DNA of 38,638 bases from an uncultured Clostridia bacterium. GTDB taxonomy: Bacteria > Bacillota > Clostridia > Christensenellales > UBA1242. Positions 9,545 through 38,638 of the stretch are shown one piece after another. A program made the position numbers and the translations under genes. The DNA lies in assembly GCA_937914725.1 (NCBI GenBank), contig CALDMJ010000078.1, forward strand, positions 1 through 38,638, in the 5' to 3' direction. The notes under the pieces were generated by a model, which was not told where the DNA came from, made no database searches, and worked only from the letters and a program-made list of their open reading frames with translations. Position 1 is the first letter of the stretch. Every line of letters begins with the position of its first letter.

Positions 9545-9907
9545 TGACAAAAAACAAGACCGGATAAAATGCAAATGATTTGTAGGGATTGCACCTGCAG
9601 CCGTGGGCTATCCCATCGAACAGATATATAATTATATAATATAGAATGCACTTATGTGCGCCGTCCGCACAAATCAGTTGGGCGTAGGGATTACACCTGC
9701 AGCCGTGGGCTATCCCATCGAGCATACAAATAACATAGAATGCACTTATGTGCGCCGTCCGCACAAATCAGTTGGGCGTAGGAATAGTACTTACAGCCGT
9801 GGGCTATCCCACCGAGCAGATATATAATATAGAATGCAGATAAATATGCCGCCCCAAGAATTGTTTGCTTGTAAAGATAGTATCTGCAACGGTGGCTTGC
9901 GCCCCAC
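9545..9907 (-). repeat. Array 1 of the structured ~94-nt repeat family (4 units, minus orientation)
   Basis: On the plus strand, units begin at 9641, 9735 and 9829, a period of 94 nt. Each reads ATAGAATGCA..GCGCCGTCCGCAC..GCGTAGGGAT..CTGCAGCCGTGGGCTATCCC..CGAG. Units 2 and 3 are identical over about their first 48 nt. The first unit (9545-9623) is degenerate at one end and the last abuts the stop codon at 9908. Confidence 0.85.
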
Positions 9908-11032
9908 TTATAAAAAGTCGTCAAGGTTATTGAAATTAACGTCAGCAGGGTCATAATTACGGTGGTGAATTGCGACAGGATTGACTTTTTTGTACGTCGA
10001 AAAATCCCTGTACCTACCAGCTACTACGTCGTCATAATGTGCGACTAGCCAATCTATATCAAGGTTCATACTGTTTTGCAAAAAAGCACTTTCTCGCACC
10101 GCTTTATATAGCAAATCGAGGTTTATATTGTTACTATCAATCATTAAGTTAGGATTTTTTAGTGGTTTATTCAGTTTTTGAGAGAGAAATTGAGCGAGCG
10201 GAACGCGCGCCGTTTCGTTAGGCGGCGGAATCGCCGCCGTTTGCGAAACATTTTCCTCTTTCTCTCCTATAACTTTTATTTCACTTTCTTTTTTTATTTG
10301 ACTTTTTCTTTCTTCTTTTCTTTCTCTTTGTTTCAAAATGACGTCATTTTGCCCCAAAATGTCGTCCGTTTGCCCCAAAATGTCGTCGGTTTGAGCCAAA
10401 TTGACGTCATTTTGAATTTTGGACGCCATTTTCTCCCCGTTTTGCGAGGTAGTGACTTTGCTCTTATGTGTCGATTTGTTGTTTTGTTTACCATAATTTT
10501 GGATGCACTTCTCATTTTTTTCACGTTTGAGTACTCCACTGCTATAGTTCTGCTGCAAAATAACGTGTTCAACGGCCGCAGGACCTTGTGCATTTGCTGT
10601 TTCGTCTGCTACAGAATTTGCGTATTCGACGGCAATGGATTTGCGTTCGTCCAACAACTCGGGGTAAACATATTGCGGCGCGTGCCAAGGGTTTATTCGC
10701 TTTTGCGTGATTTGCTTGTAATCCTTTTGGATCTCGCGACTTGTCAAAACGTGATGTTTTTCGTACATATCTTTGTCAAAAATACCGTTGTCGAGGCAGT
10801 ACTGCACACAGTTTTCGATGAGTTGTTCATCCTTTTCGTATATGTCGAGCGTGAACAGCGCTTGCTTGCGGGCGTTCCACTCGAGATAGTAGCCGTTTTC
10901 CATTGCCATTTTGTTGAACAACAGTTGCAGACAACCATACCCTGCAAGCCCTAATTTGCCTATCATTAATTTGGTGTCGTCGTCGAAGTAGCACACGAGC
11001 GGTCTATAGTCTATTCCTTTTTTGATGTTCAT
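9908..11032 (-). CDS. DUF4373 (Lin1244/Lin1753-like N-terminal domain) protein, phage replisome-organizer-like
   Basis: The N-terminus GIDYRPL..YFDDDTKL..GYGCLQLLFNKMAMENGYYLEW..VLTSREIQKDY matches the DUF4373 pattern as I recall it. A central Lys/Glu-rich linker carries the QTDDILG repeats. I chose the ATG at 11032 (AAAGGGA upstream) rather than the ORF-track start at 11053. Confidence 0.75.
   Translation of the reverse strand: MNIKKGIDYRPLVCYFDDDTKLMIGKLGLAGYGCLQLLFNKMAMENGYYLEWNARKQALFTLDIYEKDEQLIENCVQYCLDNGIFDKDMYEKHHVLTSREIQKDYKQITQKRINPWHAPQYVYPELLDERKSIAVEYANSVADETANAQGPAAVEHVILQQNYSSGVLKREKNEKCIQNYGKQNNKSTHKSKVTTSQNGEKMASKIQNDVNLAQTDDILGQTDDILGQNDVILKQRERKEERKSQIKKESEIKVIGEKEENVSQTAAIPPPNETARVPLAQFLSQKLNKPLKNPNLMIDSNNINLDLLYKAVRESAFLQNSMNLDIDWLVAHYDDVVAGRYRDFSTYKKVNPVAIHHRNYDPADVNFNNLDDFL
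10331..10414. repeat. Four tandem 21-bp direct repeats (iteron-like) inside the DUF4373 ORF
   Basis: The four copies are TTTCAAAATGACGTCATTTTG (10331-10351), CCCCAAAATGTCGTCCGTTTG (10352-10372), CCCCAAAATGTCGTCGGTTTG (10373-10393) and AGCCAAATTGACGTCATTTTG (10394-10414). A partial inverted copy lies at about 10419-10433. Copies 1 and 4 contain the palindrome TGACGTCA. Confidence 0.85.
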
Positions 11033-11052
11033 AATGTTTTCCCTTTGTAACA

Positions 11053-11061
11053 ATTATAGCA
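11053..11061 (-). promoter_or_regulatory. Extended -10 element (TGCTATAAT) upstream of the DUF4373 gene
   Basis: The minus strand reads TGC-TATAAT, about 20 nt upstream of the ATG at 11032. I found no convincing -35 box. Confidence 0.4.
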
Positions 11062-11088
11062 CACTTTTTCGACAACTCGCCCAAAAAT

Positions 11089-11375
11089 CTCGGCGGGGAT
11101 AGCCCCGCGGCTACAGGTACTGTCCCTACACGCAAGCCATCTTCGCAGACGGCGTAGTTTATTCTTTTTATGAATTGTATATCCTCGGCGGGGATAGCCC
11201 ACGTCTGCGGGTACTATCACTACAAGTCATATACATTTTTGGGCGGCGAAGTTGTTTTATTCTATATTATTTGTATTCTCGGTGGGATAGCCCCGCGGCT
11301 ACAGGCACTGTCCCTACCACCTAAGACATTCACGCGGACGGCGTTTATTTATGCCCCCCCCTATAATTGTTACCC
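11089..11375 (+). repeat. Array 2 of the repeat family (3 units, plus orientation)
   Basis: CTCGG unit heads lie at 11089, 11184 and 11278, giving periods of 95 and 94 nt. Each unit reads CTCGG-GGGGATAGCCCC-GCGGCTACAGGTACTGTCCCTAC-variable-GACGGCG-T-rich. The array is inverted relative to array 1. Confidence 0.85.
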
Positions 11376-11552
11376 CTTTAAACCACCTATTCTATAATAA
11401 ATCACATTTTTAAGTTTTATTTTCAAAAACAGTCACACTAATTACTTACTTTTATCCAATATCTCTTGTTTTATTGGAGTAAGCGGAGAAAATCGGGCGT
11501 TTTTTGTTCCGCAGTATTTTGCTGCGCCGCGCAATTGTTGCAAATTTTCCGC

Positions 11553-11580
11553 TTGCTTTTTGCGCAAAAAATGGTATAAT
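11553..11580 (+). promoter_or_regulatory. Sigma-A promoter with extended -10 for yqeY
   Basis: TTGCTT (11553-11558), a 16-nt spacer, and TGG-TATAAT (11572-11580), located 31 nt upstream of the ATG at 11612. Confidence 0.6.
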
Positions 11581-12037: not shown

Positions 12038-12061
12038 TACAAAACACAAAGGATAAATATT

Positions 12062-13108
12062 ATGGATTTTGCATCAATATTCAACAATTTTTGGTCAACC
12101 ACTGGCGTGACCTTGATAAAAACATTCGCGATAATCGTTTTGGGGCTACTGCTCATCAAAATTATTATGCGATACGTCAAAAAAGTGTTTATGGCGTCGC
12201 AAATGGAGGCGGGCTTAAGTTCTTTTCTATTGTCCGTCATTCGCGCCGTGCTATATGTTTTGCTGATTTTTCTCATTTTCTCGACGCTTGGCGTCTCGAT
12301 GGGCGCATTCATTGCCGCATTATCTGCTGCAGGCTTAGCAGTCGCTCTTGCACTGCAAGACAGTTTGAGCAACCTCGCCTCAGGCATTCTCATTTTGGTA
12401 AACAAACCATTTGTTGAGGGCGACTACATCCGCGTTGGCTCAGATGAAGGCACGGTGAAGTCAGTGCGCATTTTCACGACACAAATTGAGAGTTATGACA
12501 AAAAAATTATAACTATTCCAAACAAATCAGTCATCAACAGCAATGTTGTCAACTACACTTCAAGCCCAACTCGCCGCGTGACAATCTTGTTTTGCGTACC
12601 ATATAATGCGGACATTGATTACATTAAAAAAGTTATTTTCGAGGAATTTAAAACCTGCAAATACGCAATCAAGTCGCCCGAAATGTTCGTCGGCATTGAA
12701 AACTACGATGAACACGGCGTTCAAATGACTTTAAAAATTTGGAGCAAAGCAGAAGATTATTGGGGACTATACTACCTCGCGTATGAAAAACTTACGCGCG
12801 CACTTAATGAGGCGGGCATTACAATCACAAACGACCACTCTATCATCAATATTTCGGACACTGAACGCAAATTGAAAGAAAACGAAACGCGCAAAGCAAT
12901 TTTTGAGAGCAAACTGAAAGCACAAAAAGAAAACAACGAAAAAGCCGCAAAAACAAAGCAAATTGAAAAACAAGCGGAAGAAGTAGAAAAAACGCAAAAT
13001 TTTGAAACAAAAATTACTACAGTAGAAGAAAACGCTGATATTTTAGAAGAAAAACCAAAGAAAAAACGTAAATTTTTGTGGGGGCGTAAAAATGATGAAG
13101 AAAATTAA
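12062..13108 (+). CDS. mscS: Small-conductance mechanosensitive channel (MscS family)
   Basis: 348-aa ORF with three N-terminal TM helices followed by LQDSLSNLASGILILVNKPFVEGDYI..GTVKSV..IPN, the MscS pore and beta domain. It has a Lys/Glu-rich C-terminal extension. Confidence 0.85.
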   Translation: MDFASIFNNFWSTTGVTLIKTFAIIVLGLLLIKIIMRYVKKVFMASQMEAGLSSFLLSVIRAVLYVLLIFLIFSTLGVSMGAFIAALSAAGLAVALALQDSLSNLASGILILVNKPFVEGDYIRVGSDEGTVKSVRIFTTQIESYDKKIITIPNKSVINSNVVNYTSSPTRRVTILFCVPYNADIDYIKKVIFEEFKTCKYAIKSPEMFVGIENYDEHGVQMTLKIWSKAEDYWGLYYLAYEKLTRALNEAGITITNDHSIINISDTERKLKENETRKAIFESKLKAQKENNEKAAKTKQIEKQAEEVEKTQNFETKITTVEENADILEEKPKKKRKFLWGRKNDEEN

Positions 13109-14834
13109 TCAAAAAAATGCTACAACCCGCAATTTTGCTGCGTTTTTGGCAAAAAACGCTAAATTGTGGCTAAACTTTATTTTAGCACTTGCACTTTTGG
13201 CACTACTTATGCCAATTTGCGCACTATCCTGCACAAAATCAATACCAAAGCCGCAAATTTTGAGCGCATACGCGCAAGATTCGACAATTACATCTGAGGA
13301 ATTTCCAGCGGAAAACTTTACTGCATTTACCACGCAAACAATAAATTTCAAAATTTACTCGCAATATGAAATTGAATGCACAAATAATGACGGGCTAACA
13401 CTAAATACTACAACAATTTCAACTGATTACTATCTTGTATCTGTCACAAGTGCAAAGCCAATCACGTCACAAATAATTGTCAAAAACAAGTTTGGTGGCG
13501 TGGCATTTGCAAACTTTAGTTTTGTCGCATATAAAATAAACACAATAAAATTAATTCCATATCAAGCAAAATTCAATGCAACGGGCGACAACTATTTGCA
13601 AGTTTGCTACAATGACAATCCTCAACTCATATATAGCGGCATCATTATTAGCGAACTCGAAAAAGGCAGCGCGACGATCGAAGATTTAAACCCAAGCCAT
13701 ATCACTAAATCAATTAATCCGCATATGATTGTACTCAATTTTGAAAATGTTGATTACACCCAATACATCGGCGCAAAATTTGTTGTCGCTTCAAAAAATG
13801 ACAGAGCAAGCGTTGATTTAGAAATTGAAAATTTACCATTTACAAACACATTTACATTGCAAGAGTCGACACTTGACTACTTTGCAAGCAGCAAACTGAT
13901 TACTGTAAATGTGTTGGTGGATGCAAACAGTTTTGCGACTTTTTCGCTTGCCTCAAACTCTTTTGCACAATTTGCAAACATTGAGAAAGTTGCGTCGGGC
14001 GAAAGTTTTGACACCTATGCCCTATCAATTGACATTTCAAGCCTTAGTGCGTCGACCGAAATTATGATTTCCGCACTAACTGCAAGCGGCAGCATTGAAC
14101 GCGCTTTGAGACTCAATCCTATTAGCACAATTTCAAAAATTGTAATTTCTGCAAGCAAAACTTCGCTAAAATCGGGCGAAAAAGTTACTTTTACCGCAAT
14201 TTTGAACGATGATGACACGCTTTCAAGCGAAATTGACTGGTATGTCAACGACCAAAAGGTCGAAACAGGCACACAATTTGGATATACGCGCAAACAAGGC
14301 GGTGCGTTCACCGTCTATGCAAAAGTCGGCGAAACGCAAAGCAACAGCGTTTCACTCAATGTCTCGTACAATAACTCGGACCTCATCATTTGGTATATTG
14401 TTTTTGCAATTGCACTTGTAATTTTAATCGGGCTTATCATTTTTAAAAGAAAAAAGAAAACTTTTATTTCTTCAATGTCGCTGACTGACCGCGCGCGAAA
14501 ATTCATCCCACGCTACAAAACATACATCAACAAGTACACTCGTCACCAATTCTTTGACCTTGTGTACGACATTGCAAATTTGCGCGAAGATGTAATGTTT
14601 AATTTTGACGAAACGAAAGATTTGTGCTTCGAAAAAGCTAGCCGCGAACTTGCGGACGCCCACAAGATTGTTCGCACAATCTACAAAGCGCCAAAAGAAG
14701 AAAAAAAGGCGCTGCTTGAAAGCAATCTTTCTTCTTTCGAATCAATTATGAATTCAGTAATTGACGACTTAGACGACTATGCGCAAAAACATCCTGATCA
14801 AGCAATCTTCAAGCGAAAAAATAAAATAAAATAA
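13092..14834 (+). CDS. Hypothetical surface/membrane protein (N-terminal signal or lipobox-like, C-terminal TM anchor)
   Basis: 580-aa ORF. It has an N-terminal hydrophobic segment ending ALSC. A long Ser/Thr/Asn-rich ectodomain is followed by a TM helix (IIWYIVFAIALVILIGLIIF) and a KRKKK stop-transfer signal, then a cytoplasmic tail of about 120 aa. It overlaps the mscS end by 17 nt. Confidence 0.6.
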   Translation: MMKKINQKNATTRNFAAFLAKNAKLWLNFILALALLALLMPICALSCTKSIPKPQILSAYAQDSTITSEEFPAENFTAFTTQTINFKIYSQYEIECTNNDGLTLNTTTISTDYYLVSVTSAKPITSQIIVKNKFGGVAFANFSFVAYKINTIKLIPYQAKFNATGDNYLQVCYNDNPQLIYSGIIISELEKGSATIEDLNPSHITKSINPHMIVLNFENVDYTQYIGAKFVVASKNDRASVDLEIENLPFTNTFTLQESTLDYFASSKLITVNVLVDANSFATFSLASNSFAQFANIEKVASGESFDTYALSIDISSLSASTEIMISALTASGSIERALRLNPISTISKIVISASKTSLKSGEKVTFTAILNDDDTLSSEIDWYVNDQKVETGTQFGYTRKQGGAFTVYAKVGETQSNSVSLNVSYNNSDLIIWYIVFAIALVILIGLIIFKRKKKTFISSMSLTDRARKFIPRYKTYINKYTRHQFFDLVYDIANLREDVMFNFDETKDLCFEKASRELADAHKIVRTIYKAPKEEKKALLESNLSSFESIMNSVIDDLDDYAQKHPDQAIFKRKNKIK

Positions 14835-14847
14835 AATAAAATAAAAT
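14818..14847. repeat. (AAAAT)x6 pentanucleotide microsatellite
   Basis: Six perfect AAAAT units counted by hand. The stop codon of the 580-aa ORF (14832-14834) lies inside the tract. Confidence 0.9.
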
Positions 14848-15016
14848 AATGATGTGTAATTGAATTTATAAATCAAATAGTTTTTAATTGCATTATTCAA
14901 TCTACTTAATTGAAACAAATTTGTATTAACAAATAAAAAAAATAATCTATTTATTAGATATAAATAGATTATTTTAATAATCACAAACGTTTTATTATTA
15001 ATAAAATGAATGCAAA

Positions 15017-18732: not shown

Positions 18733-20148
18733 CTAGAGCAATTTAGGCAGTCCATCTTTACTAGGCGCAAGATCCCACACATTTTCGTCAAGATTATCAT
18801 ACCCTAAAGTTAGTATGTTATTAACATTTTGATATCCCGTTACATCGCCCAAAATTTCACCTTTCTTTTGATAAACGGCATAATTAACGTGTTCATAAAC
18901 TGGATCACCATTCCTATCATTATAAAGTTTTATATTCTCATCATAATCATAATAAGCAATGTTGCTAAGCAAAGTTTCCGCTACTGTATGTGCAAAATCA
19001 TATGCGTGAACATATCGCGACTCTTGTCCATCCGTATTATCACCCATATTGCATTTTTTTGCGTAAGCGTATGAATTTTCAACCCTGCCTAAAAGCTTTC
19101 CGCCAAACCCGCACAAATATACATCGTGACGTACGCCTCTAAAAATACCGCTGACAAGCCCTTCTTTGCCTGTCATAGTGCCTGAAGCACCCGAATCTTT
19201 GATACTTCCTTTGTAATACCCAACTAAAAGACCTACCCACGTTGCAGCAGTAACCCTATTCCCGCCATACGAGAATACATCAAACATAGCATCATTAACA
19301 ATTGTTTTTTCAATCACGCCACTACTACTTATTTCTTTACCAACAACTCCGCCAATAAAATTACTATCAGTATCACTTGATAATTTTCCTGTAATTGAAC
19401 CGTAATAACTACATCTTTTAATTCGCGCGCAATCCGATTCTCCAACAATGCCTCCGATATTGCACGCGTGTAATGCTCCAAGCTTTAATGTCATTTTTGA
19501 ATTTATATTTTCAAAATAGCAACTATCCGCATAACCCACTGCGCCACCAAAACTTGTCATAAGTCCTTCATTTATGACAATTACTCCATACAGGTCACAA
19601 TTTTGGAATCTAGTATCGTGCGCTTCGCCTACAAGTGCTCCCACATATAATTTGTACGCTTTTTCATTTCCTTCTGCGTCAACTTTGACCGAATATTTCC
19701 AACTTATAGCAACATTAAGCTTAAGGTTTTTTATAGTTGCTTTGTTGGTATATGCAAAAAGCCCCATTTGCATTGTATCGGAAACTTTGTTGTCTTCATT
19801 ATATGTCCACCCCATACCTTTAACAGTGTGCCCATCACCATCAAATTTACCTGAAAATTTTTTTATTGGAACCCAGTTTGCGCGCACACTTCCGTCCTCA
19901 TTATAATTTGTCAAATCAATATCATTGCCAAGTTTATAGGAATAACTAGGGTTCAACCTTACAGCATTTAATTCTTCGCAGTCAGTTATAACATACGGGT
20001 CGCTTTCAGTTCCTGAGCCAGTTTCATAAATGTGGCTTACATCAACACGTTTATCGCCTTCAGATTTTTTACCAAAAATTCCACACCCGCAAAAAAGTCC
20101 CGCACATAAACAAATTATTAATGTCGTAATAATTATTTTATAATTCAT
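18733..20148 (-). CDS. GLUG-motif repeat lipoprotein
   Basis: 471 aa with the lipobox LFCGC. It has repeated G-G-[IVLA]-[VA]-G segments (VGALVGEA, GGAVGYA, GGIVGES, GGVVGKE) typical of GLUG repeats. Its RBS is AGAGGGGTG. Confidence 0.7.
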   Translation of the reverse strand: MNYKIIITTLIICLCAGLFCGCGIFGKKSEGDKRVDVSHIYETGSGTESDPYVITDCEELNAVRLNPSYSYKLGNDIDLTNYNEDGSVRANWVPIKKFSGKFDGDGHTVKGMGWTYNEDNKVSDTMQMGLFAYTNKATIKNLKLNVAISWKYSVKVDAEGNEKAYKLYVGALVGEAHDTRFQNCDLYGVIVINEGLMTSFGGAVGYADSCYFENINSKMTLKLGALHACNIGGIVGESDCARIKRCSYYGSITGKLSSDTDSNFIGGVVGKEISSSGVIEKTIVNDAMFDVFSYGGNRVTAATWVGLLVGYYKGSIKDSGASGTMTGKEGLVSGIFRGVRHDVYLCGFGGKLLGRVENSYAYAKKCNMGDNTDGQESRYVHAYDFAHTVAETLLSNIAYYDYDENIKLYNDRNGDPVYEHVNYAVYQKKGEILGDVTGYQNVNNILTLGYDNLDENVWDLAPSKDGLPKLL

Positions 20149-20160
20149 TGCTGCACCCCT

Positions 20161-21552
20161 CTATTCTTCACTTTTTATTGTCAGGTTTTTATATTCATAC
20201 GGAATATCATTGTAAATAAGTTTGGGGAGCAAATCACCTTCTTCTTGCGTCCAAATGCCCTGCCCGTCGGGAAACTCAACCATTTGCCCAACAGTTGCTT
20301 TCATATAAATTCCTTCTTCTTCAATAAAGTGGTTTGGCTTAATTGGGTGATATATCCCTGCAAAGGATTGATTATAGTAATAACAATTGCTTACAAAATG
20401 GTCATCCCCGCCAAAAATTACGCCATATCCGGTTGTATTCGTTACTGAAAGATGCGAAATAACATTGTTTATTTTCCCGTCCGAAATACCTGCCACGCCT
20501 GCAACCATAAATTGGATGTAGTATTCCTCTTGCTCAAAAAGTGTTACGGGAGGCTGATATTCTTCACTCACACTAAAGACAGCCGCACAGTTTTTAATAC
20601 TGCCATCTTTCTTATTTATCCCTGCTATACCACCTACTACATATGGCATATTAGATTTGTAATCGGTCAAACTTAATTTGCTTTTTAGCACTGCATTCAA
20701 GCGCACTTTGCCCACATCGCTCACACATTTTTCGACCGTACCATTTAACATCCCTACTATTCCCCCAACACAAGTGGTGCTAACAAATTCTTCACTATTT
20801 AAAACTTTTCCTGTTCTATTTAATTCGCTTCTACCCTTGCGAACATAAGCAGTAACATCTAGCGTTCCATTGAACACACAGTTTTCTATATTTGTGCCAT
20901 AGCCCGCTATTCCACCTACGCGCTGACGCCCTTCGCCGTTTCCTGAGTATATGTTTGTTGTAATTTTCACACTTGATGTGCAGTTTCTAATTGTTCCAGT
21001 AGATTCGCCAACAAGTCCACCAATTGCGCCATAATCAGTATTTGCCTTAAAAGTGCCTGTAACGTGACAATTTTCAATCAAATTATCGGACGAGTTAGCA
21101 ATAGTGCCCAAATACCAAAAATTGTTGTTACAATCTATGTTTACATCAAGATTTAGATTTTTGATTTCGCCAGAACATGACCCAAACAAATTATTATTTA
21201 GATTTTTTATCGTGTGGTTATCTCCATCAAAATATCCTTCAAACGGGACGATAGGTTTCCATATAGTAGTTGGATTACCATCAGAATCTTCTCCTTCCCA
21301 ATCGGCTAAATCAATATCAACAGTTAGTTTAAAATAACGTTTAAATTTATCTAGCTTAGACATAGAACTTAATCGATATGCATTGTCAACAATATATGGG
21401 TTTGATTCAGTGCCCTTGCCTTCCGCATAAATCTCTGATGCAATCTTCTCAATTTTGTCATTATATTTTTTTTCGTTTATTGCTCTTGCTATTGCACCCC
21501 CGCCTATTAAAACTCCGATTACTACTATAGTGATTATAATCTCTTTCCACAT
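20161..21552 (-). CDS. GLUG-motif repeat protein, paralog with N-terminal TM anchor
   Basis: GLUG-like boxes are GGLVGES, GGIAGYG, GGIVGML, GGIAGIN and VAGVAGIS. It shares the N-terminal module G(S/T)ESNPY/GTESDPY with its neighbour. I prefer the ATG at 21552 (GGGGATGAG RBS) over the TTG at 21594. It ends 12 nt upstream of the next gene. Confidence 0.7.
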   Translation of the reverse strand: MWKEIIITIVVIGVLIGGGAIARAINEKKYNDKIEKIASEIYAEGKGTESNPYIVDNAYRLSSMSKLDKFKRYFKLTVDIDLADWEGEDSDGNPTTIWKPIVPFEGYFDGDNHTIKNLNNNLFGSCSGEIKNLNLDVNIDCNNNFWYLGTIANSSDNLIENCHVTGTFKANTDYGAIGGLVGESTGTIRNCTSSVKITTNIYSGNGEGRQRVGGIAGYGTNIENCVFNGTLDVTAYVRKGRSELNRTGKVLNSEEFVSTTCVGGIVGMLNGTVEKCVSDVGKVRLNAVLKSKLSLTDYKSNMPYVVGGIAGINKKDGSIKNCAAVFSVSEEYQPPVTLFEQEEYYIQFMVAGVAGISDGKINNVISHLSVTNTTGYGVIFGGDDHFVSNCYYYNQSFAGIYHPIKPNHFIEEEGIYMKATVGQMVEFPDGQGIWTQEEGDLLPKLIYNDIPYEYKNLTIKSEE

Positions 21553-21827
21553 ATTCTCATCCCCACTGCACTTAGATTTGATCGCATAATACAAAATGCG
21601 GTACTATATTATTTGTGATACTGTTTGCTTTTTATTTTATATTTTTTAGTGATACTGTTTTTTTCGCGGCAAAATTGCAGTCGTGCAACGGTTTGTTGCA
21701 CGACACATTTTGCCATTGCACGATTGTTTTTGCGCTCGCGCTTTTTTACTTTTGCACATTTTTTCCCTATTGCGCAATTTTTCTCTCTTGTGACATTTTT
21801 TTAATTATTCATTAATTGTTTTTTCAA

Positions 21828-27134: not shown

Positions 27135-27250
27135 GACCCCTTCCGGCAAGGCTCGCCTTGACCGCAGATTTGGTTGCTGTCTCACAACAACATATGCACA
27201 CCAACTTACACCTGCACCTGTGCCGTTTGGCACCGGTCGAAATGGCAAAG
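27135..27250. repeat. Two degenerate units of the repeat family in opposite orientation
   Basis: CGGCAAGGCTCGCCTTGACCGCAGATTTGGTTGCTGTCTC aligns with GGCGGGGATAGCCCCGCCGCTGCAGGTTTGGTTAGTGGCAC at 38556. The hairpin sequence differs but a hairpin is retained. ACCTGCACCTGTGCCGTTTGGCACCGG matches the reverse complement of the CTGGTGGCAAACGCCACTGG insert. Confidence 0.6.
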
Positions 27251-31222: not shown

Positions 31223-31339
31223 AACAATATTTCCCTCCATTTTTCTTTTAATATTATATCAATTCTCCGCTCTCTTTGTCAAGTGACAGAGTCATTAACA
31301 AGTAAAAAGCGCTCCTACTCAACGACGCAACAAATAACT

Positions 31340-31466
31340 TGCTTGTAGGCGCTATCCCTAAATCCGCAACACTATCCCGAAAAAAGGTACATAGTAATTT
31401 AACTATGTACCCAATTACATATAGTGTCACCTAGCCCAACCTATAGCAGCGGGGCTATCCCCGCAA
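31340..31466 (-). repeat. Repeat-family module (unit plus GGTACATAGT hairpin) downstream of the UPF0104 gene
   Basis: GGTACATAGT-aattta-ACTATGTACC (31386-31411) is followed by CAATTACATATAGTGTCACCTAGCCCAACCTATAGCAGCGGGGCTATCCCCGC. This is the reverse complement of the 38556-38638 module. A further degenerate GTAGGCGCTATCCC unit lies at 31345. Confidence 0.75.
31380..31411 (-). terminator. Intrinsic terminator supplied by the repeat module
   Basis: The minus strand reads GGTACATAGT-TAAATT-ACTATGTACC followed by TTTTTT. It lies about 75 nt downstream of the stop at 31485. Confidence 0.6.
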
Positions 31467-32816: not shown

Positions 32817-33153
32817 TTGCCCATTAACCCTTTCACTTAGTATTAGTATAATAGCAAAAAAACATTTTTTTGTCAACACAAAACCCCCCACATACAAAAA
32901 AAGCACATAGTCAAATGACTATGTGCATAATGTGCTTTTGTGTCGTCCAACCAACATCCGTATTTGTGGCGTAAACCATACAAATATGACCACCCTATAG
33001 ATACAAGTTCCCGTCCTCTAAGATTTATATACATAGTAATGTTCCCTGCACCAATGCTCCTGTCATACAAATACAGCGTCTCATAAATATTACTAGGTAT
33101 ACCACCTATAAAAGTAGTTCACTCGTAAGAACAACACGCCAGTGGCTTTGCCA

Positions 33154-33534
33154 TCAGCCGCCCGCACCTGCAGAGCCCGTTGGACCTGTCGGACCTGTCG
33201 CGCCTGTGGCACCACGTGGGATGAAGAAATTGAGAGTATGCACATTGCCAACAATTGTGTCAGTAACGTATGCTTCTTCATCTGGCTCAAGAGTGGTGGT
33301 TTCGCCAACAGCAAAGATTGGGGAAATGCCGTCTGCGCCTGTTGCACCCGTCGCACCTGTCGGTCCTGTTGCGCCCGTCGGGCCGGTAACCCCTTGCGCG
33401 CCTTGCGGCCCTGTCGCACCCGTCGGCCCTATCGGTCCAACAATCGCGCCAGTCGCGACGACTGTGCTTGCCGTTCTAAAACGAGGCGTCGGGCAACAGC
33501 ATCGACATCTAGTGCATCCGCAAATATTGCACAT
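33154..33534 (-). CDS. Small collagen-like (G-X-T repeat) protein with a Cys-rich N-terminus
   Basis: The 126-aa product begins [15 protein letters not shown], with 7 Cys in 14 residues. About 17 GxY triplets follow ([22 protein letters not shown]...), then a 35-aa non-collagen insert ending FFIPRG. More GxY triplets run to the stop. The RBS is AGAGGTGA. Confidence 0.65.
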
Positions 33535-33620
33535 CTTTCACCTCTTGTTTTGTAGCACATTTTGTTTTGTGCTACACTTCATAGTATGCACGAAATTTGT
33601 TTGTGTGCAATTATATACGA

Positions 33621-33930
33621 AAACGGGGATAGCCCCGCTGCTGCAGGCACTGTTCCTACGCGCAAGTTGGTTACGTGGGCGGCGAACTTGTTTGCTTGCT
33701 ATAAGCACTTGTTCTCGTGTGGGGATATCCCCGCTGGTGGCAAACGCCACTGGTACAAATACTGTACCTACGCCAAATTAACATACGCGGACGGCATTGT
33801 TTTGTGCCTTCTTTATACTCTCATCCTCGAAACAGACGCCGCTTGTGCAGATTTGGCGGGAAAACCCGCCGCTACAGGTTCGGTACGTGACTACATACAA
33901 TTTTGGTACATAGTTAATTGACTATGTACC
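33621..33930 (+). repeat. Composite repeat block (3-4 plus-orientation units ending in the GGTACATAGT palindrome)
   Basis: Hairpin heads GGGGATAGCCCC (33625), GGGGATATCCCC (33721) and GCGGGAAAACCCGC (33856). Palindrome GGTACATAGT-TAATTG-ACTATGTACC lies at 33905-33930. The segment 33625-33764 recurs at 38415-38554. Confidence 0.85.
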
Positions 33931-33949
33931 AATTTCATATAATGCCACT

Positions 33950-34290
33950 CACCCAACCTGCAGTAGCGGGGCTTTCCCTCACGCGTGAACAAACTATAAT
34001 AGTAAGTTCGCAAATACGCCGTCCACCAAAGTGACTGACGCGTAGGAACAGTACCTGCAGCAGCGGGGCTTTCCCCGCCTGCACCTGTGGCGTTTGTCAA
34101 CGAACAATAAATATTGTAGAAAGCACATATATGTGCCGCACGCGAAAGTAATTTACACGTAGTGACAGTACCTGCAGCCGTGCGCTATCGCCCCCACGAG
34201 GTGCATCCTAACTAGAAAGCGCTACAAATTTGCCGTCCACGCAAGCAACTTACGCGTAGTAACAGTATCTGTAGCTGTGCGCTTTCGCAC
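33950..34290 (-). repeat. Array of 4 minus-orientation units convergent on the preceding block
   Basis: GTAG-type heads lie at about 34042 (GTAGGAACAGTACCTGCAGCAGCGGGGCTTTCCCCGC), 34159 (GTAGTGACAGTACCTGCAGCCGTGCGCTATCGCCCC) and 34256 (GTAGTAACAGTATCTGTAGCTGTGCGCTTTCGCAC). A partial unit lies at 33957-33985. GCCGTCCAC boxes precede each head. Confidence 0.8.
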
Positions 34291-34662
34291 TTATTTAAAA
34301 ATCAAGTTGCCCGAAAAATCGAACTCAAAATAGTCATCATCAACCGCATCATAGTCCACATCAAAGCGTGGCTCTTTGGGATATGCTACCATTCTTGATA
34401 CGCGAAGATTGAGACTCTCGCACAAAATCAAAAACTCCCGCAAAGTGAGCGTGCCTTGCTCATCCCCCAAAAATTGACGCAACCGCTCATAATCAATGCC
34501 GCAACTTTCGGCAAACGCCTTGATTGAAATGTTTGGCTTTTTAGGCGCTTGCGCAACATTCTTTGCAATGCCTTTCAGCCATTTTTCAACATCCTTTCTC
34601 GCCCGCTCTCCACTGCCCATTGTCACAACAACGGTTTTTACAAACTCCTCGTCACTCTCCAT
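34291..34662 (-). CDS. Hypothetical HTH-containing protein (acidic N-terminus)
   Basis: The C-terminal half, SIKAFAESCGIDYERLRQFLGDEQGTLTLREFLILCESLNL, looks like an XRE-type helix-turn-helix. I prefer the ATG at 34662 (GAGG 5 nt upstream); the ORF track extends to 34710. Confidence 0.5.
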   Translation of the reverse strand: MESDEEFVKTVVVTMGSGERARKDVEKWLKGIAKNVAQAPKKPNISIKAFAESCGIDYERLRQFLGDEQGTLTLREFLILCESLNLRVSRMVAYPKEPRFDVDYDAVDDDYFEFDFSGNLIFK

Positions 34663-34715
34663 TGCCACCTCATCGCCTCTCATTATATCACTATTTTTAG
34701 TAATTGACAACTATT

Positions 34716-34733
34716 TTTAACGATATCGTTAAA
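34716..34733. promoter_or_regulatory. Perfect 18-bp palindrome in the divergent intergenic region (candidate operator)
   Basis: TTTAACGATATCGTTAAA is perfectly self-complementary. It lies between the divergent HTH genes, just downstream of a TTGACA hexamer (34704-34709) and a duplicated CTATTTTTA (34691 and 34711). Confidence 0.45.
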
Positions 34734-34789
34734 CTTAACCCCTAAAATAAGCTATGCAACTTGTTAAAATTCATTTGAGGTAATAAATT

Positions 34790-35032
34790 ATGACTATTGG
34801 CGAGGCATACCTAATTAGGTTAAATAAATTGTTGAAAGACAAAAACATAACAACATATAGATTTGTTAAAGAAAGTTGCATCCCTGAAGCAACTTTGAGA
34901 AACTTGAAAACAAAAAGGTCGAAAAGCCCTAAAATGTCATTGTTCTATCAAACAGCAAACGCACTTGATATGACAATAAATGAATTTCTTGACGACCCAA
35001 TTTTTAATAGTGACGATATCGAATTTTTGTGA
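34790..35032 (+). CDS. 80-aa XRE-like HTH protein, paralog 1 of 3
   Basis: MTIGEAYLIRLNKLLKDKNITTYRFVKESCIPEATLRNLK... ends in DDIEFL. GAGGT RBS lies 9 nt upstream. Confidence 0.7.
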   Translation: MTIGEAYLIRLNKLLKDKNITTYRFVKESCIPEATLRNLKTKRSKSPKMSLFYQTANALDMTINEFLDDPIFNSDDIEFL

Positions 35033-35042
35033 GGCAATTTTT

Positions 35043-35285
35043 ATGACTTTGACTGAAGCATATATTATAAGGTTAACTGAACTACTAAATGAGAGAAACA
35101 TAACTTTCTACAAATTTGCCAAAGAAAGTTGTATACCACATACTACAATAGAAAATTTGAAGAAAAAAGTTACAAAAAGCCCGTCGCTGAAATTGATATA
35201 TCAAACAGCAAACGGGCTCGGTATGTCAGTCGTCGAATTTCTTGACGACCCTATTTTTTGTAGTGATGATATTGAATTTTTGTGA
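35043..35285 (+). CDS. 80-aa XRE-like HTH protein, paralog 2 of 3
   Basis: MTLTEAYIIRLTELLNERNITFYKFAKESCIPHTTIENLK... ends in DDIEFL. By manual count 52 of 80 residues are identical to paralog 1. Its RBS GAGG overlaps the stop of paralog 1 (TTTTTGTGAGG). Confidence 0.7.
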   Translation: MTLTEAYIIRLTELLNERNITFYKFAKESCIPHTTIENLKKKVTKSPSLKLIYQTANGLGMSVVEFLDDPIFCSDDIEFL

Positions 35286-35294
35286 GGACAAGCA

Positions 35295-35537
35295 ATGACA
35301 ATAAGTGAGGCATACATTTTGAGATTGAAAGAACTACTGAAAGAGAAGAAAATGACACAATATAGGTTTGTGCGCGAAAGTTGCATTCCTATGTCGACAT
35401 TGCAAAGCATAAAACAAGGTAAAACAAAAAGCCCTAATATGACGTTATTTTTTATGACGGCATACGGACTTGGTATTTCGGTTGTCGAATTTCTTGACAG
35501 CCCCTACTTTAATATGGACGATATTGAATTTTTGTAA
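35295..35537 (+). CDS. 80-aa XRE-like HTH protein, paralog 3 of 3
   Basis: MTISEAYILRLKELLKEKKMTQYRFVRESCIPMSTLQSIK... ends in DDIEFL. It shows the same stop/RBS overlap junction (TTTTTGTGAGG). Confidence 0.7.
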   Translation: MTISEAYILRLKELLKEKKMTQYRFVRESCIPMSTLQSIKQGKTKSPNMTLFFMTAYGLGISVVEFLDSPYFNMDDIEFL

Positions 35538-35568
35538 GAGGTGATTTTGGCAATCAACAAACTCATAA

Positions 35569-36345
35569 TCATTCATACGAAATTAAATTAAATTTTTTTG
35601 AAATTTTTTCGCCATATTCTCCAGTAAGTTTAAACATTAAATATGAACAATGTGAATTTTTGACAGAAAATCTTGTATTGAATTTTTCGCTAAAATTAAA
35701 CTTTGTTTCTAGTAAATTTAGTTCATCATCATACCATTCAATTTTGTTGGTCTTATCACAAGTTATAGATATCGTTCCTTCATAATTATTGATACTAATA
35801 TCTAAAATTCTAGGTGTAAAGCCACATTCATTTTTAAGTAAGTTTATTTCATTCTCATTATATTCTGATTCAATTAATGGCAAATAGGACTCTTTAATTT
35901 CAATATTTTTGCCACCAAACTTTTCTAAATTTGCAACAATTTTCCATCTATAAACCTTATTTCTTTCTTCAAATTCTATTTGTGCCTTGGCTAAATGTTT
36001 TGCAAATTCAAATTCGTTACAATTATTAACTTTCATAAAATGTTTCTTTGCGTTTTCTCCAAAACCTAGCCTTTGCGAATTTCTTATGTGTATAACTCCA
36101 TGACATCTACTACAAATGGCAATTATATTTTTGAGTGTTTGAGTTCTTGTTTCAATGTTAAAATCCCACACCTCATGAGCATCTAAATCATCAGTCTCAA
36201 AACCACAAATAGCACATTTATGATTTGCTTTGTCATAACAAAATTTTCTCAAAACATCCCAATCTTTTTTAGGTAAAGTTTTACTAAAATCATTACCCCA
36301 AGCACCTTTGGGCAATAATTCAATTTTTAATTTCACATCTTTCAT
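35569..36345 (-). CDS. HNH-like zinc-finger nuclease-fold protein with an unknown C-terminal domain
   Basis: CAICGFETDDLDAHEVWDF...IAICSRCHGVIH shows a CxxC...H-E...CxxCH..H arrangement, as in phage-associated HNH proteins. The C-terminal ~130 aa are unassigned. The gene is visibly AT-rich. Confidence 0.55.
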   Translation of the reverse strand: MKDVKLKIELLPKGAWGNDFSKTLPKKDWDVLRKFCYDKANHKCAICGFETDDLDAHEVWDFNIETRTQTLKNIIAICSRCHGVIHIRNSQRLGFGENAKKHFMKVNNCNEFEFAKHLAKAQIEFEERNKVYRWKIVANLEKFGGKNIEIKESYLPLIESEYNENEINLLKNECGFTPRILDISINNYEGTISITCDKTNKIEWYDDELNLLETKFNFSEKFNTRFSVKNSHCSYLMFKLTGEYGEKISKKFNLISYE

Positions 36346-36352
36346 ATTTTAC

Positions 36353-36838
36353 CTACCTTGTTGGATATAACTCGCCTGATATGTATTTATTCATATAGTT
36401 TTCAAACCCCATTTTAGCAATTAATTCTTCTTGGTCGAATGGGTTTACTGCCTTTATGTTTCCCGTCATTTCATCAAAAGGTGTTCCGTAACAAATAATT
36501 CCAACAGGTTTTATTACTTCCAGCATTTTATTATAACTTTTCATAAACTCATATTTATATTCCTGTCTACAATAAGTTGAAACCGCAACCACAGAACCTT
36601 GCTCTATACCATCAAAGCAAAAATCATAACTATCGCTGCCAGCACAACAAACGGTTGGAATTACCTTCATTCCATATTTTTGGAAAAAGGCCCCACACCA
36701 CCTATTTTTGAATGTACTATATATTTGAAGAGCCTTTGGCATATCCCAGTACAAGCTAAATTCGGGAGATAACACTGCATAATATTGTTTCAATTTTTCC
36801 ATAGCTAATTCTGGCTTTTCGTAAACATTTCCAAACAA
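36353..36838 (-). CDS. DUF4417 domain protein, apparently 5'-truncated or degraded
   Basis: LSPEFSLYWDMPKALQIYSTFKNRWCGAFFQKYGMKVIPTV...GIEQGSVVAVS matches my recollection of DUF4417. The frame stays open upstream to 36979 and encodes IHFFTYDW, also DUF4417-like, but with no ATG. The ORF-track start is a TTG. Confidence 0.6.
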   Translation of the reverse strand: MFGNVYEKPELAMEKLKQYYAVLSPEFSLYWDMPKALQIYSTFKNRWCGAFFQKYGMKVIPTVCCAGSDSYDFCFDGIEQGSVVAVSTYCRQEYKYEFMKSYNKMLEVIKPVGIICYGTPFDEMTGNIKAVNPFDQEELIAKMGFENYMNKYISGELYPTR

Positions 36839-37126
36839 CCAATCATAAGTAAAGAAATGTATTGTTTTATTGCTGTTTTCTTCATCTTTTAGTTTTGTTT
36901 TTGTATAATTCCATAAGTCTATTTTATCTAAGTCAATTTCTTGTTTCTTAATTAGTGGTATACCATATTTGCAACTGTTTTAAATTCATTTCTTACTAGT
37001 TTAAGTTTTTTTAACAACTTTTCGTTTTCATATTCTGTTTTTTCCTGTATTAAATGGTTATCTACTTAATATTTCTCTTTCATAAAAACTCCTTTCAAAT
37101 AATCATAAATTCATTCTTCACAATTT

Positions 37127-37426
37127 TCATTTATTGTTTTGAAGTTTATCAAAATATTCTTGTGATATTTCTATAGCATAAAATCTATTGTTTTTAAAAT
37201 TAGCTAATATTTCGTTTTTATTTTCTTCCCAAAATTTCTTATACTGGTTTAAACTCATTTCATTTGCACCCCCCATATAATCTGGCTGTTCGTTTTGTAT
37301 ATCATCATCCTCCCAACCACAATACGGGCAGATGTCATATGAATTTTTTATGTCCCCCATACCACACACTTTGCATTTGTATGGTGGGCAATCTATTTCG
37401 TTTTTATTTTTTTTACTATTAATCAT
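37127..37426 (-). CDS. CPCC-family cysteine-rich protein
   Basis: CPPYKCKVCG...DICPYCGWEDDDIQ...PDYMGGANEMSLNQYKKFWEE is the classic CPCC (Cys_rich_CPCC) pattern. I prefer the ATG at 37426 with AAAGGAGA just upstream. Confidence 0.75.
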   Translation of the reverse strand: MINSKKNKNEIDCPPYKCKVCGMGDIKNSYDICPYCGWEDDDIQNEQPDYMGGANEMSLNQYKKFWEENKNEILANFKNNRFYAIEISQEYFDKLQNNK

Positions 37427-37436
37427 AATTTCTCCT

Positions 37437-37769
37437 TTAATTCCAATGGTCTCCCCATTTTTCATATTGTTTATAAAAATATTTTATGCCATCTCTAGGT
37501 GGAAAATATGTCACAATCTTACCGTCCCTAGAAATGACCATAAATTCGTTTGTTTCTTTATCATATTTATATGTTGAATTATGTTTATGTTCATTTGCAA
37601 TAAAAGATATTATATTGTCATCTTCTTTCACTGCAAATTCTTTTGCTTCTTTTGAATACCCTTGAATATTATTTTCAAACCCCATTTGCTTGCCATGCCG
37701 TTTATAATGTTCAACTTCAGTATATTCACTTGTCCAATATTCAGCATAAGTACTAGGACCTTTCTCCAT
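37437..37769 (-). CDS. Hypothetical 110-aa protein resembling a stand-alone polymorphic-toxin C-terminal (RNase-like) domain
   Basis: The pattern HYKRHGKQMGF..YSKEAKEF...GKIVTYFPPRDGIKYFYKQ resembles CdiA-CT/BECR-type RNase toxin domains as I remember them. The RBS is poor and an in-frame TAA lies immediately upstream of the ATG. Confidence 0.35.
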   Translation of the reverse strand: MEKGPSTYAEYWTSEYTEVEHYKRHGKQMGFENNIQGYSKEAKEFAVKEDDNIISFIANEHKHNSTYKYDKETNEFMVISRDGKIVTYFPPRDGIKYFYKQYEKWGDHWN

Positions 37770-37947
37770 TTATTATATCATACCCCCTTTTAGAATGCAA
37801 AAGGTTGAAGACATATATATCTCTTCAACCTCTTGCCTACATTATATCACTGTATTTTACAAAGTCAATATTTTAGTACCATACTTTTTAATTTTCATTT
37901 CAAATTTTTTTTCGTTTTTAATGACAAGCAATTCAATAACAAGTTAC

Positions 37948-38394
37948 TCACTTTTTGACGGTGCTGCCGAAGCCTCCGTTGCGCGCGGCGGTCACTTCTT
38001 CTTCGTCGTCCACTTTCAAAAATGTGGTGAAGATGCCTTGCCCGATTTTGTCGCCGCGCTTGATTTCATAGGGCTCGGCGCTCAAATTCCTGAGCATAAA
38101 CCCGATGTTGCCTTCGTTGCCCGCGTTGTTGTAGTAGTCCGCGTCGATAACGCCGATTCCGTTGGCAAGCACGATGCCGCGTTTGCCCATTCCGCTGGTT
38201 GAGCAGAGAATTAGCACTTCATTTTCCTCAAAGCGTGCTTTGATGTCTGTAAAGATAAGTTTTGCGGCGTTTGGCTCAATTGTCACATCTATTGGCGAAT
38301 AAAAGTCGTAACCTGCGGACGCTTTTGTTGCGCGGTTCGGCATTTTTATTTCGCTGTCGTATTTTCTACTATTCACTATTTCAAATTTTCTCAT
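37948..38394 (-). CDS. dut: dUTP diphosphatase (trimeric dUTPase)
   Basis: 148 aa with the motifs ATKASAGYDFYSP, GVIDADYY and a C-terminal RNGGFGST. Confidence 0.9.
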   Translation of the reverse strand: MRKFEIVNSRKYDSEIKMPNRATKASAGYDFYSPIDVTIEPNAAKLIFTDIKARFEENEVLILCSTSGMGKRGIVLANGIGVIDADYYNNAGNEGNIGFMLRNLSAEPYEIKRGDKIGQGIFTTFLKVDDEEEVTAARNGGFGSTVKK

Positions 38395-38410
38395 ACTCTC
38401 CTCCGTGGGG

Positions 38411-38638
38411 ATGCGGGGATAGCCCCGCCGCTGCAGGTACTGTTCCTACGCGCAAGTTGGTTATGTGGGCGGCGAACTTGTTTGCTTTCTACAAGCACTT
38501 GTTCTCGTGTGGGGATAGCCCCGCTGGTGGCAAACGCCACTGGTACAGATACTGGCGGGGATAGCCCCGCCGCTGCAGGTTTGGTTAGTGGCACTATACT
38601 AAATTAGGTACATAGTTAAATTTCTATGTACTTTTTTT
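38411..38638 (+). repeat. Composite repeat block (plus orientation), a copy of 33621-33930 with a ~90-nt deletion
   Basis: 38415-38554 aligns without gaps to 33625-33764, with 7 mismatches in 140 nt by manual alignment. It is followed by GCGGGGATAGCCCCGCCGCTGCAGGTTTGGTTAGTGGCAC and the GTACATAG hairpin. Confidence 0.85.
38607..38638 (+). terminator. Intrinsic terminator at the end of the repeat block
   Basis: GGTACATAG-ttaaattt-CTATGTAC is followed by T7 at the window edge. Confidence 0.55.

Follow-up and report, generated by a model that had tools for sequence, protein, structure and literature searches.

What kind of sequence fills the spaces between the genes of this locus, and by what means did it spread and persist there? 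The 38,638-nucleotide (nt) stretch analysed here (contig CALDMJ010000078.1 of an uncultured Clostridia bacterium; called the window, always at its whole length) holds at several intergenic sites a family of direct repeats, each of them headed by a small hairpin. The original prediction took these for a previously unrecognised family of the kind of repetitive extragenic palindromic (REP) sequences and bacterial interspersed mosaic elements (BIMEs). Our data confirm that the family is genuine, and it is apparently undescribed. The reading we prefer, to which we give a probability of roughly 0.55, is that of REP/BOX-like repeat DNA which has been spread and reshaped at the DNA level and is co-transcribed with its neighbours, where the hairpin would act as a block at the transcript end and one of the two unit types, type B, as a terminator.

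The existence of the family is evident from several independent counts. A covariance model (CM) of the common unit, type A, was derived from 96 distinct units and, run with its filters off, finds 13 full-length copies in the window with E-values from 1e-8 to 2e-25, besides two copies of full length that are degenerate (33071-33160 and 31290-31384), while a second model (nhmmer) finds five units of type B. With partial copies included the total is about 22-25 units, in agreement with the roughly 25 counted before. The core CTRCAGGNACTGTNCCTAC, with three or fewer mismatches allowed, matches the window 11 times against 0.03 matches expected. Tandem Repeats Finder (TRF) reports a period of 94 nt at 9582-9835 and the repeat search of the window gives start-to-start spacings of 94, 94, 97, 112 and 117 nt; a tandem period of 94-95 nt had been proposed. 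All six loci that had been listed hold the repeat, and the repeat search recovers repeat families at every one of them; the list had missed a type-B copy at 32897-32970 and a hairpin at 24454-24470. Altogether the repeats occupy 1,974 nt, or 5.1% of the window, and their G+C content is 48% compared with 39.8% for the window overall.

Read in the orientation that begins with the hairpin, units of both types share a 5' module, in which a covarying stem of 5-6 base pairs (bp) with an A(T/A)A(G/C) tetraloop, hairpin 1, is followed by GCTGCAGG. In type A the body then continues with TACTGTCCCTAC, about 20 variable nt, GGACGGCG, CTTTCTAT and GTTCTCG, and the consensus of the whole unit can be written as (tcg) GGTGGG-AAAC... 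hairpin, nGCTGCAGGTACTGTCCCTAC, about 20 variable nt (gcgtAAGTtACTTTtGtG), GGACGGCG, about 10 variable nt, GCTTTCTAT, about 8 nt and GTTC. The linear blocks conserved outside the hairpin are CTGCAGGTACTGTCCCTAC, GGACGGCG and CTTTCTAT, and the G(A/G)CGGCG box named by the original prediction is present as described. At least 90% of the units keep the TAC of a CTAC motif; the motif lies 20-24 nt 3' of the hairpin foot, and the conserved sequence in between, GCTGCAGGTACTGTCC, is not palindromic.

Hairpin 1 is under structural constraint. A stem of at least 5 bp with a 4-nt loop is formed by 84 of the 96 units, the loops being mostly ATAG (42 units), AAAG (16) and AAAC (7), and the stems come in at least six fully complementary versions: CGGGG/CCCCG (27 units), GTGGC/GCCAC (19), GTGCG/CGCAC (11), GCGGG/CCCGC (8), GCGGC/GCCGC (5) and GTGAC/GTCAC (1). 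In a MAFFT alignment that had not been fitted to any model 81.9% of the stem cells are paired, compared with 68.2% in shuffles, and 62 double-sided changes are seen where shuffles give 16.5; neither value is reached by any of 500 shuffles. Slid controls pair at most 58% of the cells, and the model-fitted alignment gives the same covariation result. The hint of structural selection that had been drawn from one copy with an exchanged stem is therefore borne out by the compensatory changes in the family as a whole.

This constraint is confined to the hairpin, which folds better than its shuffles (z = -3.2), whereas the remainder of the unit gives z-values of only -0.2 to -0.5. A mutual-information scan over all column pairs returned signal inside hairpin 1 only. 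RNAalifold proposed a second helix, CUGUCC/GGACGG, in which 84.8% of the cells pair; shuffles do equally well, so there is no covariation in it, and structure in the variable region or the tail was likewise rejected, as these parts fold no better than shuffles. Therefore, the other conserved blocks are kept as sequence and not as structure. The long GGGA...TCCCC palindrome that had been proposed is not retained either, as only the hairpin of 14-16 nt has structural support. The mismatches within hairpin 1 (G-T to A-C, 7:6) are uninformative on the strand of action. As a separate observation, hairpins made of G and C alone (GCGGGG/CCCCGC) head 27 of 64 first units and 15 of 66 internal units in the related contigs L003-L041 (Fisher's exact test, p = 0.024).

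In type B the 3' part of type A is replaced. After hairpin 1 and GCTGCAGG come TTTGGTGAGTGGCACTATATGAATTT and a second hairpin, made of GGTACATAGT, a 6-nt loop and ACTATGTACC, which ends in a run of 5-7 T; the body that follows the 5' module can be summarised as TTTGGTGAGTGGCACTATA with a 10-bp hairpin and the T-run, and most of 40 aligned units have the 10-bp stem followed by T5-7. A few compensatory changes are found in the second hairpin, for example CATAGA/TCTATG, CATAAT/ATTATG and GGCAC/GTGCC, and its mismatches, counted on the strand of the T-run, are G-T rather than A-C by 7:2, which weakly favours that strand. Terminator-like scores were obtained for the copies at 31412-31385, 32926-32903 and 38606-38633. 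The gene on the 5' side of a type-B unit is co-oriented with it in 27 of 33 cases, as would be expected for a terminator in use. The type-B module combines a stable hairpin and a T-run with a place downstream of a co-oriented gene, as intrinsic terminators do, and on these sequence features it looks like a terminator that is in use.

Units are assembled into co-oriented, head-to-tail arrays of 1-6 members with a period of 94-97 nt, commonly of the form A(n) or A(n)B and also ABA or BBB. Additional hairpin modules can be stacked, and this produces the "insert" subtype; units truncated after ...CAGGTACTG often have a new hairpin directly following. Both subtypes that had been distinguished, one with a GGTGGCAAACGCCAC insert and one fused to the GGTACATAGT palindrome, are found as claimed.

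The placement of the arrays is strongly polar. With type-A and type-B calls combined, and with genes in the related loci taken from crude longest open reading frame (ORF) calls, the hairpin end of an array lies at a median of 11 nt from the nearest coding-sequence boundary (42 of 62 within 25 nt), and the other end at a median of 168 nt (5 of 54 within 25 nt; Mann-Whitney p = 2e-8). Four stop codons of the window, at 9908, 24460, 33154 and 34291, abut hairpin 1 or lie inside it. In other cases the hairpin end faces a ribosome-binding site with its start codon on the opposite strand, as for dUTPase in the window and for pyk in two related metagenome-assembled genomes (MAGs). Real genes end inside arrays, so that repeat sequence sets their C-termini and stop codons. 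In both MAGs the first repeat unit (L017 1265-1315 and L018 5532-5582) encodes FAGEPAA(A/T)GTVPTSK, the last approximately 15 codons of the longest methionyl-tRNA synthetase (MetRS) ORF; therefore, the repeat may supply a conserved C-terminal tail to this enzyme, unless the true stop lies upstream. Spurious ORFs also traverse the repeat arrays.

The family is lineage-specific and belongs to a small clade of uncultured gut Clostridia. A pattern scan over one genome per GTDB species found it in two MAGs only, both named "Clostridia bacterium": CAKVOD01, which came from a Hadza gut sample, and JBNMHN01. All other matches were single chance ones in high-G+C genomes. In syntenic genes, identity to the window amounts to 84-90% for JBNMHN01; for CAKVOD01 it is about 75-80%. 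The window and these two MAGs, 265 kb in total, hold about 150 type-A and 35 type-B units. A scan of metagenomes gave only two small genuine contigs and a scan of viral contigs gave no genuine match; blastn against 72,556 plasmid and 50,697 phage records found nothing, and in Rfam 15 only a transfer RNA (tRNA) of the window passed the gathering threshold, with chance-level matches alone when the arrays were searched in E-value mode. Three contigs whose assembly was independent of the window, L001, L002 and apparently L045, carry the same arrays with identities of about 99.9-100%. Of these, metagenome contig L001 is 99.95% identical to window positions 33116-38638 and runs 1.1 kb beyond them; therefore, the arrays are not peculiar to one assembly. 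Covariation is present, the polarity of placement is non-random and no known insertion sequence (IS), miniature transposable element with inverted repeats (MITE) or prophage is matched, and the original prediction of a new family stands in this respect.

The units are old: their mean pairwise identity is 63%, and the few pairs that exceed 90% consist of neighbours, of orthologues or of a single dispersed duplicate. Across species, orthologous sites can retain arrays, for example downstream of mnmE and of MetRS and upstream of pyk, and array contents turn over. At the site downstream of mnmE the two MAGs agree in about 93-95% of their coding and promoter flanks (by eye from the alignment), and only one unit is orthologous (91%). 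One MAG has an exact extra unit of 93 nt between the stop codon and the orthologous unit, without target duplication, and all other units at this locus are unrelated between the MAGs. Downstream of MetRS five units are found in one species and three in the other, and one of the units combines parts of two others, a chimera that is the signature of unequal recombination or conversion. The number of units at orthologous loci differs accordingly (3 vs 5 and 4 vs 3). Thus, arrays change faster than their surroundings, through insertion and deletion of whole units and through recombination. A further difference concerns a three-gene segment of 5.7 kb at 18733-24116 of the window, in place of which JBNMHN01 has an A-B array (L036 5376-5700); here the window keeps only the solitary hairpin at 24454-24470. 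One gene of this segment carries GLUG and M26-like domains, and another carries PT repeats with an internal duplication of about 792 nt (22517-22816 vs 23309-23608, 79% identity).

Comparison with known repeat systems suggests where the family belongs. It resembles the REPs and BIMEs of enterobacteria and the REPINs of Pseudomonas, which form systems with REP-associated tyrosine transposases (RAYTs), in being an abundant, clustered, extragenic hairpin repeat with a GTAG/CTAC motif, in sitting in some cases right after stop codons, in the lack of target duplication and in the roles proposed for it as stabiliser of messenger RNA 3' ends or terminator. However, in REPs the palindrome is 20-40 bp long and makes up the whole element, GTAG stands at its end, copies form inverted pairs, which with a short spacer are the replicating unit of a REPIN, or alternate between defined linker motifs, as in BIMEs, and a RAYT gene is flanked by REPs, whereas here a palindrome of 14-16 nt (5-6 bp stem, 4-nt loop) is part of a directly repeated 94-nt unit, CTAC is displaced from the hairpin foot by 20-24 nt and no RAYT was found in the sequence searched. 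The proposed membership in the REP/BIME group is not supported. The claim of a BIME-like orientation holds for a few convergent doublets only (27146-27233 and 33856-33978); within an array the units are direct and do not alternate, though a mosaic of modules is present, and the co-orientation of the arrays likewise speaks against REPINs. Reports of GTAG-type REPs come from Proteobacteria, from Cyanobacteria, from Chloroflexi and from the Planctomycetes-Verrucomicrobia-Chlamydiae (PVC) group, and Firmicutes are not mentioned (PMC3733652). The present family, which is from a Firmicute and whose conserved CTAC is displaced, is a curiosity and not a member of the GTAG-REP group.

The nearest analogues are the BOX and SPRITE repeats of Streptococcus pneumoniae, to which the present family is closer in design. 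BOX is likewise a modular, non-coding intergenic repeat of a Firmicute, in which one tandem module in variable number is joined to a distinct terminal module (boxA, tandem boxB, boxC), which forms stem-loops, is sited for co-transcription with neighbouring genes, has no dedicated transposase known and seems to have proliferated mostly in ancient times (PMC3049150). Distinct modules, one of them tandem in variable number, are also what we find here (A(n), A(n)B, ABA, BBB), and the likeness is one of design only: no sequence relationship is apparent, the present family has neither terminal inverted repeats nor pairing of the A...C kind, and its tandem module is an entire 94-nt unit headed by a covarying hairpin, in polar arrays whose hairpin end faces the coding sequence. 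SPRITE, in turn, is comparable with type B as a dispersed repeat of hairpin and T-run that is enriched downstream of co-oriented genes (PMC3049150). Type B differs from it by its 10-bp stem, 6-nt loop and T6 run, by its fusion to the shared hairpin-1 module and by its place inside mixed arrays with type A, and again no sequence relationship is apparent. The family is a fresh example of a familiar kind of repeat, alongside REP/BIME, BOX and SPRITE, and reveals no new kind of system.

Mobile elements of two other designs were also compared. Non-autonomous elements derived from IS200/IS605 carry a subterminal hairpin and a conserved single-stranded flank of 10-25 nt, as does the family here; they insert without target duplication, and tandem insertion is possible if the 3' end recreates the target. 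In the present family, by contrast, no distinct left and right ends are recognised, no conserved target tetranucleotide stands 5' of the hairpin, and neither a TnpA nor a TnpB gene was found in the sequence searched. Membership among MITEs was rejected because the unit ends (GCGG..., ...GTTCTCG) are not inverted repeats, the 93-nt insertion or deletion left no duplication and the 5' flanks are heterogeneous (for example ..CTAG, ..AGTG, ..CCTCCGC, ..AAGTCAA and ..TACTG).

How, then, would such a family be spread and maintained? We favour DNA-level processes acting on the hairpin-headed unit, namely the gain and loss of whole units, with no duplication of the target, and exchange among units by unequal recombination or conversion; a candidate for the enzyme would be one of the HUH/Y1 type encoded elsewhere in the genome. 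As the arrays lie between coding sequences and their signals, we infer that they are co-transcribed with neighbouring genes. A hairpin beside a stop codon or ribosome-binding site is predicted to block exonucleases at the transcript end, and the type-B module to serve as an intrinsic terminator for the gene upstream. Several observations weigh against this reading. No transposase recurs among 78 array-adjacent genes of the MAGs, and Pfam finds neither Y1_Tnp nor any other transposase domain in the 30 largest ORFs of the window, which accords with the earlier statement that no Y1 or RAYT gene is present there; several small window ORFs were compared with PHROGs only or lay outside the scans. 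A phmmer search of six-frame ORFs over the 265 kb also gave no Y1 match, in what is a weak test. There is no set of near-identical dispersed copies and no sign of a recent burst of copying or transposition, the best dispersed pair being a single 141-nt segment (33624-33764 vs 38414-38554, 95% identity), nor is any clear target motif or target-site duplication seen 5' of the first units. Type-A arrays show no strong bias relative to gene orientation (35 co-oriented to 29 opposed in the first tally; 39:23 with clean flanks only, a mild bias to co-orientation with the 5'-side gene). The crude gene calls make start-codon distances approximate, stop-codon positions being exact. Finally, selection by the host on every single copy could explain equally well why linear blocks are conserved in units that are very old.

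This last point leads to the view that the units are not selfish DNA but cis-acting RNA modules selected by the host, genome-wide elements of transcript boundaries in which hairpin 1 is a 3' or 5' exonuclease block and type B a terminator, with selection on each copy keeping the blocks. The tight fit of the hairpin end to stop codons and ribosome-binding sites, the orientation of type B relative to the upstream gene, the conservation of blocks in otherwise diverged units and the persistence of arrays at mnmE, MetRS and pyk all favour it. However, a boundary function needs no multiple tandem copies, orthologous sites show replacement of their units and not conservation, RNA structure and covariation are absent beyond the hairpin and type-A arrays stand in both orientations relative to genes, and we regard this view as unlikely. 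One could argue instead that the hairpin and CTAC are read as single-stranded DNA in a true REP/REPIN system, where a single-copy RAYT/Y1 HUH transposase encoded elsewhere cuts and rejoins units and so makes the arrays. The conservation of TAC and the covariation, as expected for recognition of shape, agree with this, as do the single clean unit insertion or deletion, the convergent doublets and the mismatches of hairpin 1, which are compatible with a DNA-level structure usable on either strand. The displaced CTAC, the long and directly repeated units, the negative searches for Y1 in the window ORFs scanned and in the 265 kb of related loci, the even distribution of type-A units over the strands of the window (7 on each) and the taxonomic range of GTAG REPs all argue against it, and in our opinion a true REP/REPIN system is rather unlikely. 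Still more doubtful is a scheme of genome-wide polar "gene-end cassettes", where an enzyme other than a RAYT would add hairpin-headed units specifically at coding-sequence boundaries, the added unit often supplying the stop codon or sitting flush with the ribosome-binding site, and the arrays would define transcript ends; if true, it would be a REP-like partnership of replicator and host that arose independently in Firmicutes.

Clusters of small-RNA genes are highly unlikely. According to this notion type B would give rise to an RNA some 85 nt long, in which a 5' stem-loop, a stretch of single strand and a Rho-independent terminator follow one another in a classic small-RNA layout, and the 3' half of type A (TGGACG, 18 nt, TAT...) would be its promoter; one unit scores as promoter-like (TGGACG, 18 nt, TATTAT at 34025-33996). 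However, conservation in the putative -10 element is limited to the T and the A with which it begins and does not extend to a final T, promoter-like sites are not in excess (30 vs 23 +/- 5 expected from shuffles), tandem type-B units leave promoters no room and no Rfam family matches. The chance that we deal with an assembly artefact, an array of clustered regularly interspaced short palindromic repeats (CRISPR) or pieces of an IS, MITE or prophage attachment site already known is negligible. Contigs of one related MAG often terminate in arrays and the direct repeats are regular, and yet the same arrays occur in independent assemblies and related ones in two other species. Whole units are about 63% identical, and what lies between the hairpins is not unique spacers, as these stretches have conserved boxes in common; no cas domains were found in the window ORFs scanned; terminal inverted repeats and target duplications are absent, and the plasmid and phage records hold no match. 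Artefact, CRISPR array and fragments of known elements are thus already refuted by the evidence.

Returning to repeat DNA reshaped at the DNA level, the family offers a Firmicute example of an abundant hairpin repeat without visible transposase and shares the question of its spread with BOX-type and CGTC-type repeats. Its strong polarity offers a concrete means of testing if such repeats should be taken for tolerated parasites or for transcript-boundary elements. With repeats filling about 5% of the window, and with arrays often standing at the contig ends of one related MAG, a model of the unit would also aid assembly, binning and annotation in this uncultured gut clade.

A gene associated with the family was looked for next to the arrays. 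The gene at 9908-11053(-), flanked by inverted arrays, has a Lin1244_N domain and matches phage replication-initiator/replisome-organiser PHROGs, while an exact look-up of its protein finds nothing on record. The housekeeping genes mnmE and pyk are flanked in the same way; the flanking is therefore non-specific and follows the polarity rule, in contrast to a REPtron-like association, and the gene was rejected as a dedicated partner. Array-adjacent genes in the MAGs are mostly of housekeeping type (PK, MetRS, DnaA, MnmE, GpsA, RecX, GerAC). Inside the initiator-like ORF, at 10334-10414, four 21-nt iterons (CAAAATGACGTCAGTTTGCCC) form an inverted pair of pairs, which looks like an origin embedded in an initiator gene, here on the chromosome. 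In JBNMHN01 three paralogous ATPase genes (about 405-435 amino acids; L008 2780-4063, L023 823-2040 and L039 1135-2442) stand beside arrays, in arrangements that are inconsistent among the three; they probably explain most of the AAA_14 (5 of 78) and DUF4143 (3 of 78) Pfam matches among array-adjacent genes.

Table 1. Repeat arrays and single copies in the window, by position.
Feature	Position	Strand	Evidence
Array of four type-A units (9819-9911, 9723-9818, 9629-9722, 9535-9622)	9535-9911	-	CM 34.7-83.6 bits; TRF period 94
Array of three type-A units (11089-11183, 11184-11277, 11278-11373)	11089-11373	+	CM 41.6-80.9 bits; repeat search
Solitary hairpin 1 (GCGGGAATAGCCCCGC)	24454-24470	-	Sequence reading and motif match
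Convergent doublet of two truncated units	27135-27250	both	CM match at 27210-27233; sequence reading
Degenerate type-A unit, 3' of the type-B unit and in the same orientation	31290-31384	-	CM 16 bits, E = 0.007
Type-B unit	31381-31464	-	nhmmer E = 8.6e-22; terminator-like site 31412-31385(-)
Diverged type-B unit (GCACATAGTC/GACTATGTGC hairpin and T7), downstream of collagen-like gene	32897-32970	-	nhmmer E = 3.2e-7; terminator-like site 32926-32903(-)
Degenerate type-A unit, hairpin TGGC-AAAG-GCCA	33071-33160	-	CM 20.4 bits
Array A-A-B (A 33619-33714, A 33715-33826, B 33856-33935)	33619-33935	+	CM and nhmmer
Array A-A-A-B (A 34200-34296, A 34104-34199, A 33987-34082, B 33901-33978)	33901-34296	-	CM and nhmmer
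Array A, truncated A, B (A 38409-38504, partial 38505-38554, B 38554-38637)	38409-38638	+	CM and nhmmer

The individual copies are listed in Table 1. The first hairpin of the array at 9535-9911, whose last unit is degenerate in its 3' half, directly follows the TAA stop (9908-9910) of the initiator-like gene, and the array at 11089-11373, inverted relative to it, has its hairpin end 42 nt from the start of the same gene. In the solitary hairpin at 24454-24470 the TAG of the loop is the stop codon of ORF 24460-25017(-); the orthologous site in a related MAG has a full array, and the orthologous gene there also stops in the hairpin loop. The doublet at 27135-27250 consists of the hairpin CAAGG-CTCG-CCTTG, present at 27146 as had been noticed, followed by CCGCAGATTTGGTTG on the + strand, and of GTGCC-AAAC-GGCAC followed by AGGTGCAGGTG on the - strand; metagenome contig L044 holds a homologous copy with 89.6% identity. 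In the type-B unit at 31381-31464 the hairpin GCGGGG-ATAG-CCCCGC is followed by CTATAGGTTGGG...CACTATATG, the hairpin GGGTACATAGT/ACTATGTACC and T6.

Further along, the remnant that had been suspected over the 3' end of a collagen-like ORF is the degenerate unit at 33071-33160, whose hairpin abuts or overlaps the TGA stop of this ORF (33154-33534(-)), and which has an orthologue in a related MAG (L023 131-280, 80% identity by blastn). The ORF itself is short and made of G-X-Y repeats with a 9-nt periodicity. At 33619-34296 two arrays converge and have one type-B palindrome in common, GGTACATAGT at 33905-33932, which the type-B unit at 33901-33978(-) shares with the + strand array. The unit at 33715-33826 is of type A with the extra GGTGGCAAACGCCAC hairpin module, the CM match itself covering 33731-33826(+), and the first hairpin of the - strand array directly follows the TAA stop of ORF 34291-34710(-). 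The last array has its hairpin end 21 nt away from where dUTPase starts, and nothing but the ribosome-binding site intervenes. Its partial copy (38505-38554) consists of two hairpin modules and CAGATACTG, and the T-run of its type-B unit stands at the window end, the sequence carrying on in L001.

The window as a whole comes from the chromosome of a spore-forming bacterium of the Clostridia. The genes that Pfam recognises in it are two PBP5-type carboxypeptidases, YtfJ, a class I lysyl-tRNA synthetase (LysRS) beside tRNA-Lys, SpoU, YqeY, MscS, TilS, Fic, a transglutaminase-like protein, LPG synthase, the collagen-like ORF, three tandem helix-turn-helix (HTH) genes, DUF4417 and dUTPase. The last of these genes belong to a phage-like remnant at 34291-38394, bracketed by the arrays at 33619-34296 and 38409-38638, which comprises three tandem paralogous HTH genes of Cro/C1 type (34790-35537; 247-nt repeat, 67-71% identity), an HNH endonuclease (35569-36345), a DUF4417 nuclease (36353-36838) and dUTPase (37948-38394). 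The class I LysRS (PF01921; 6083-7746(-)), an enzyme unusual in bacteria, lies immediately downstream of tRNA-Lys(UUU) on the same strand. Two simple repeats were also noted: (AAAAT)x6.4 at 14818-14849, just past ORF 13092-14834, and a T-rich 10/18-nt repeat at 2857-2898, where two genes meet.

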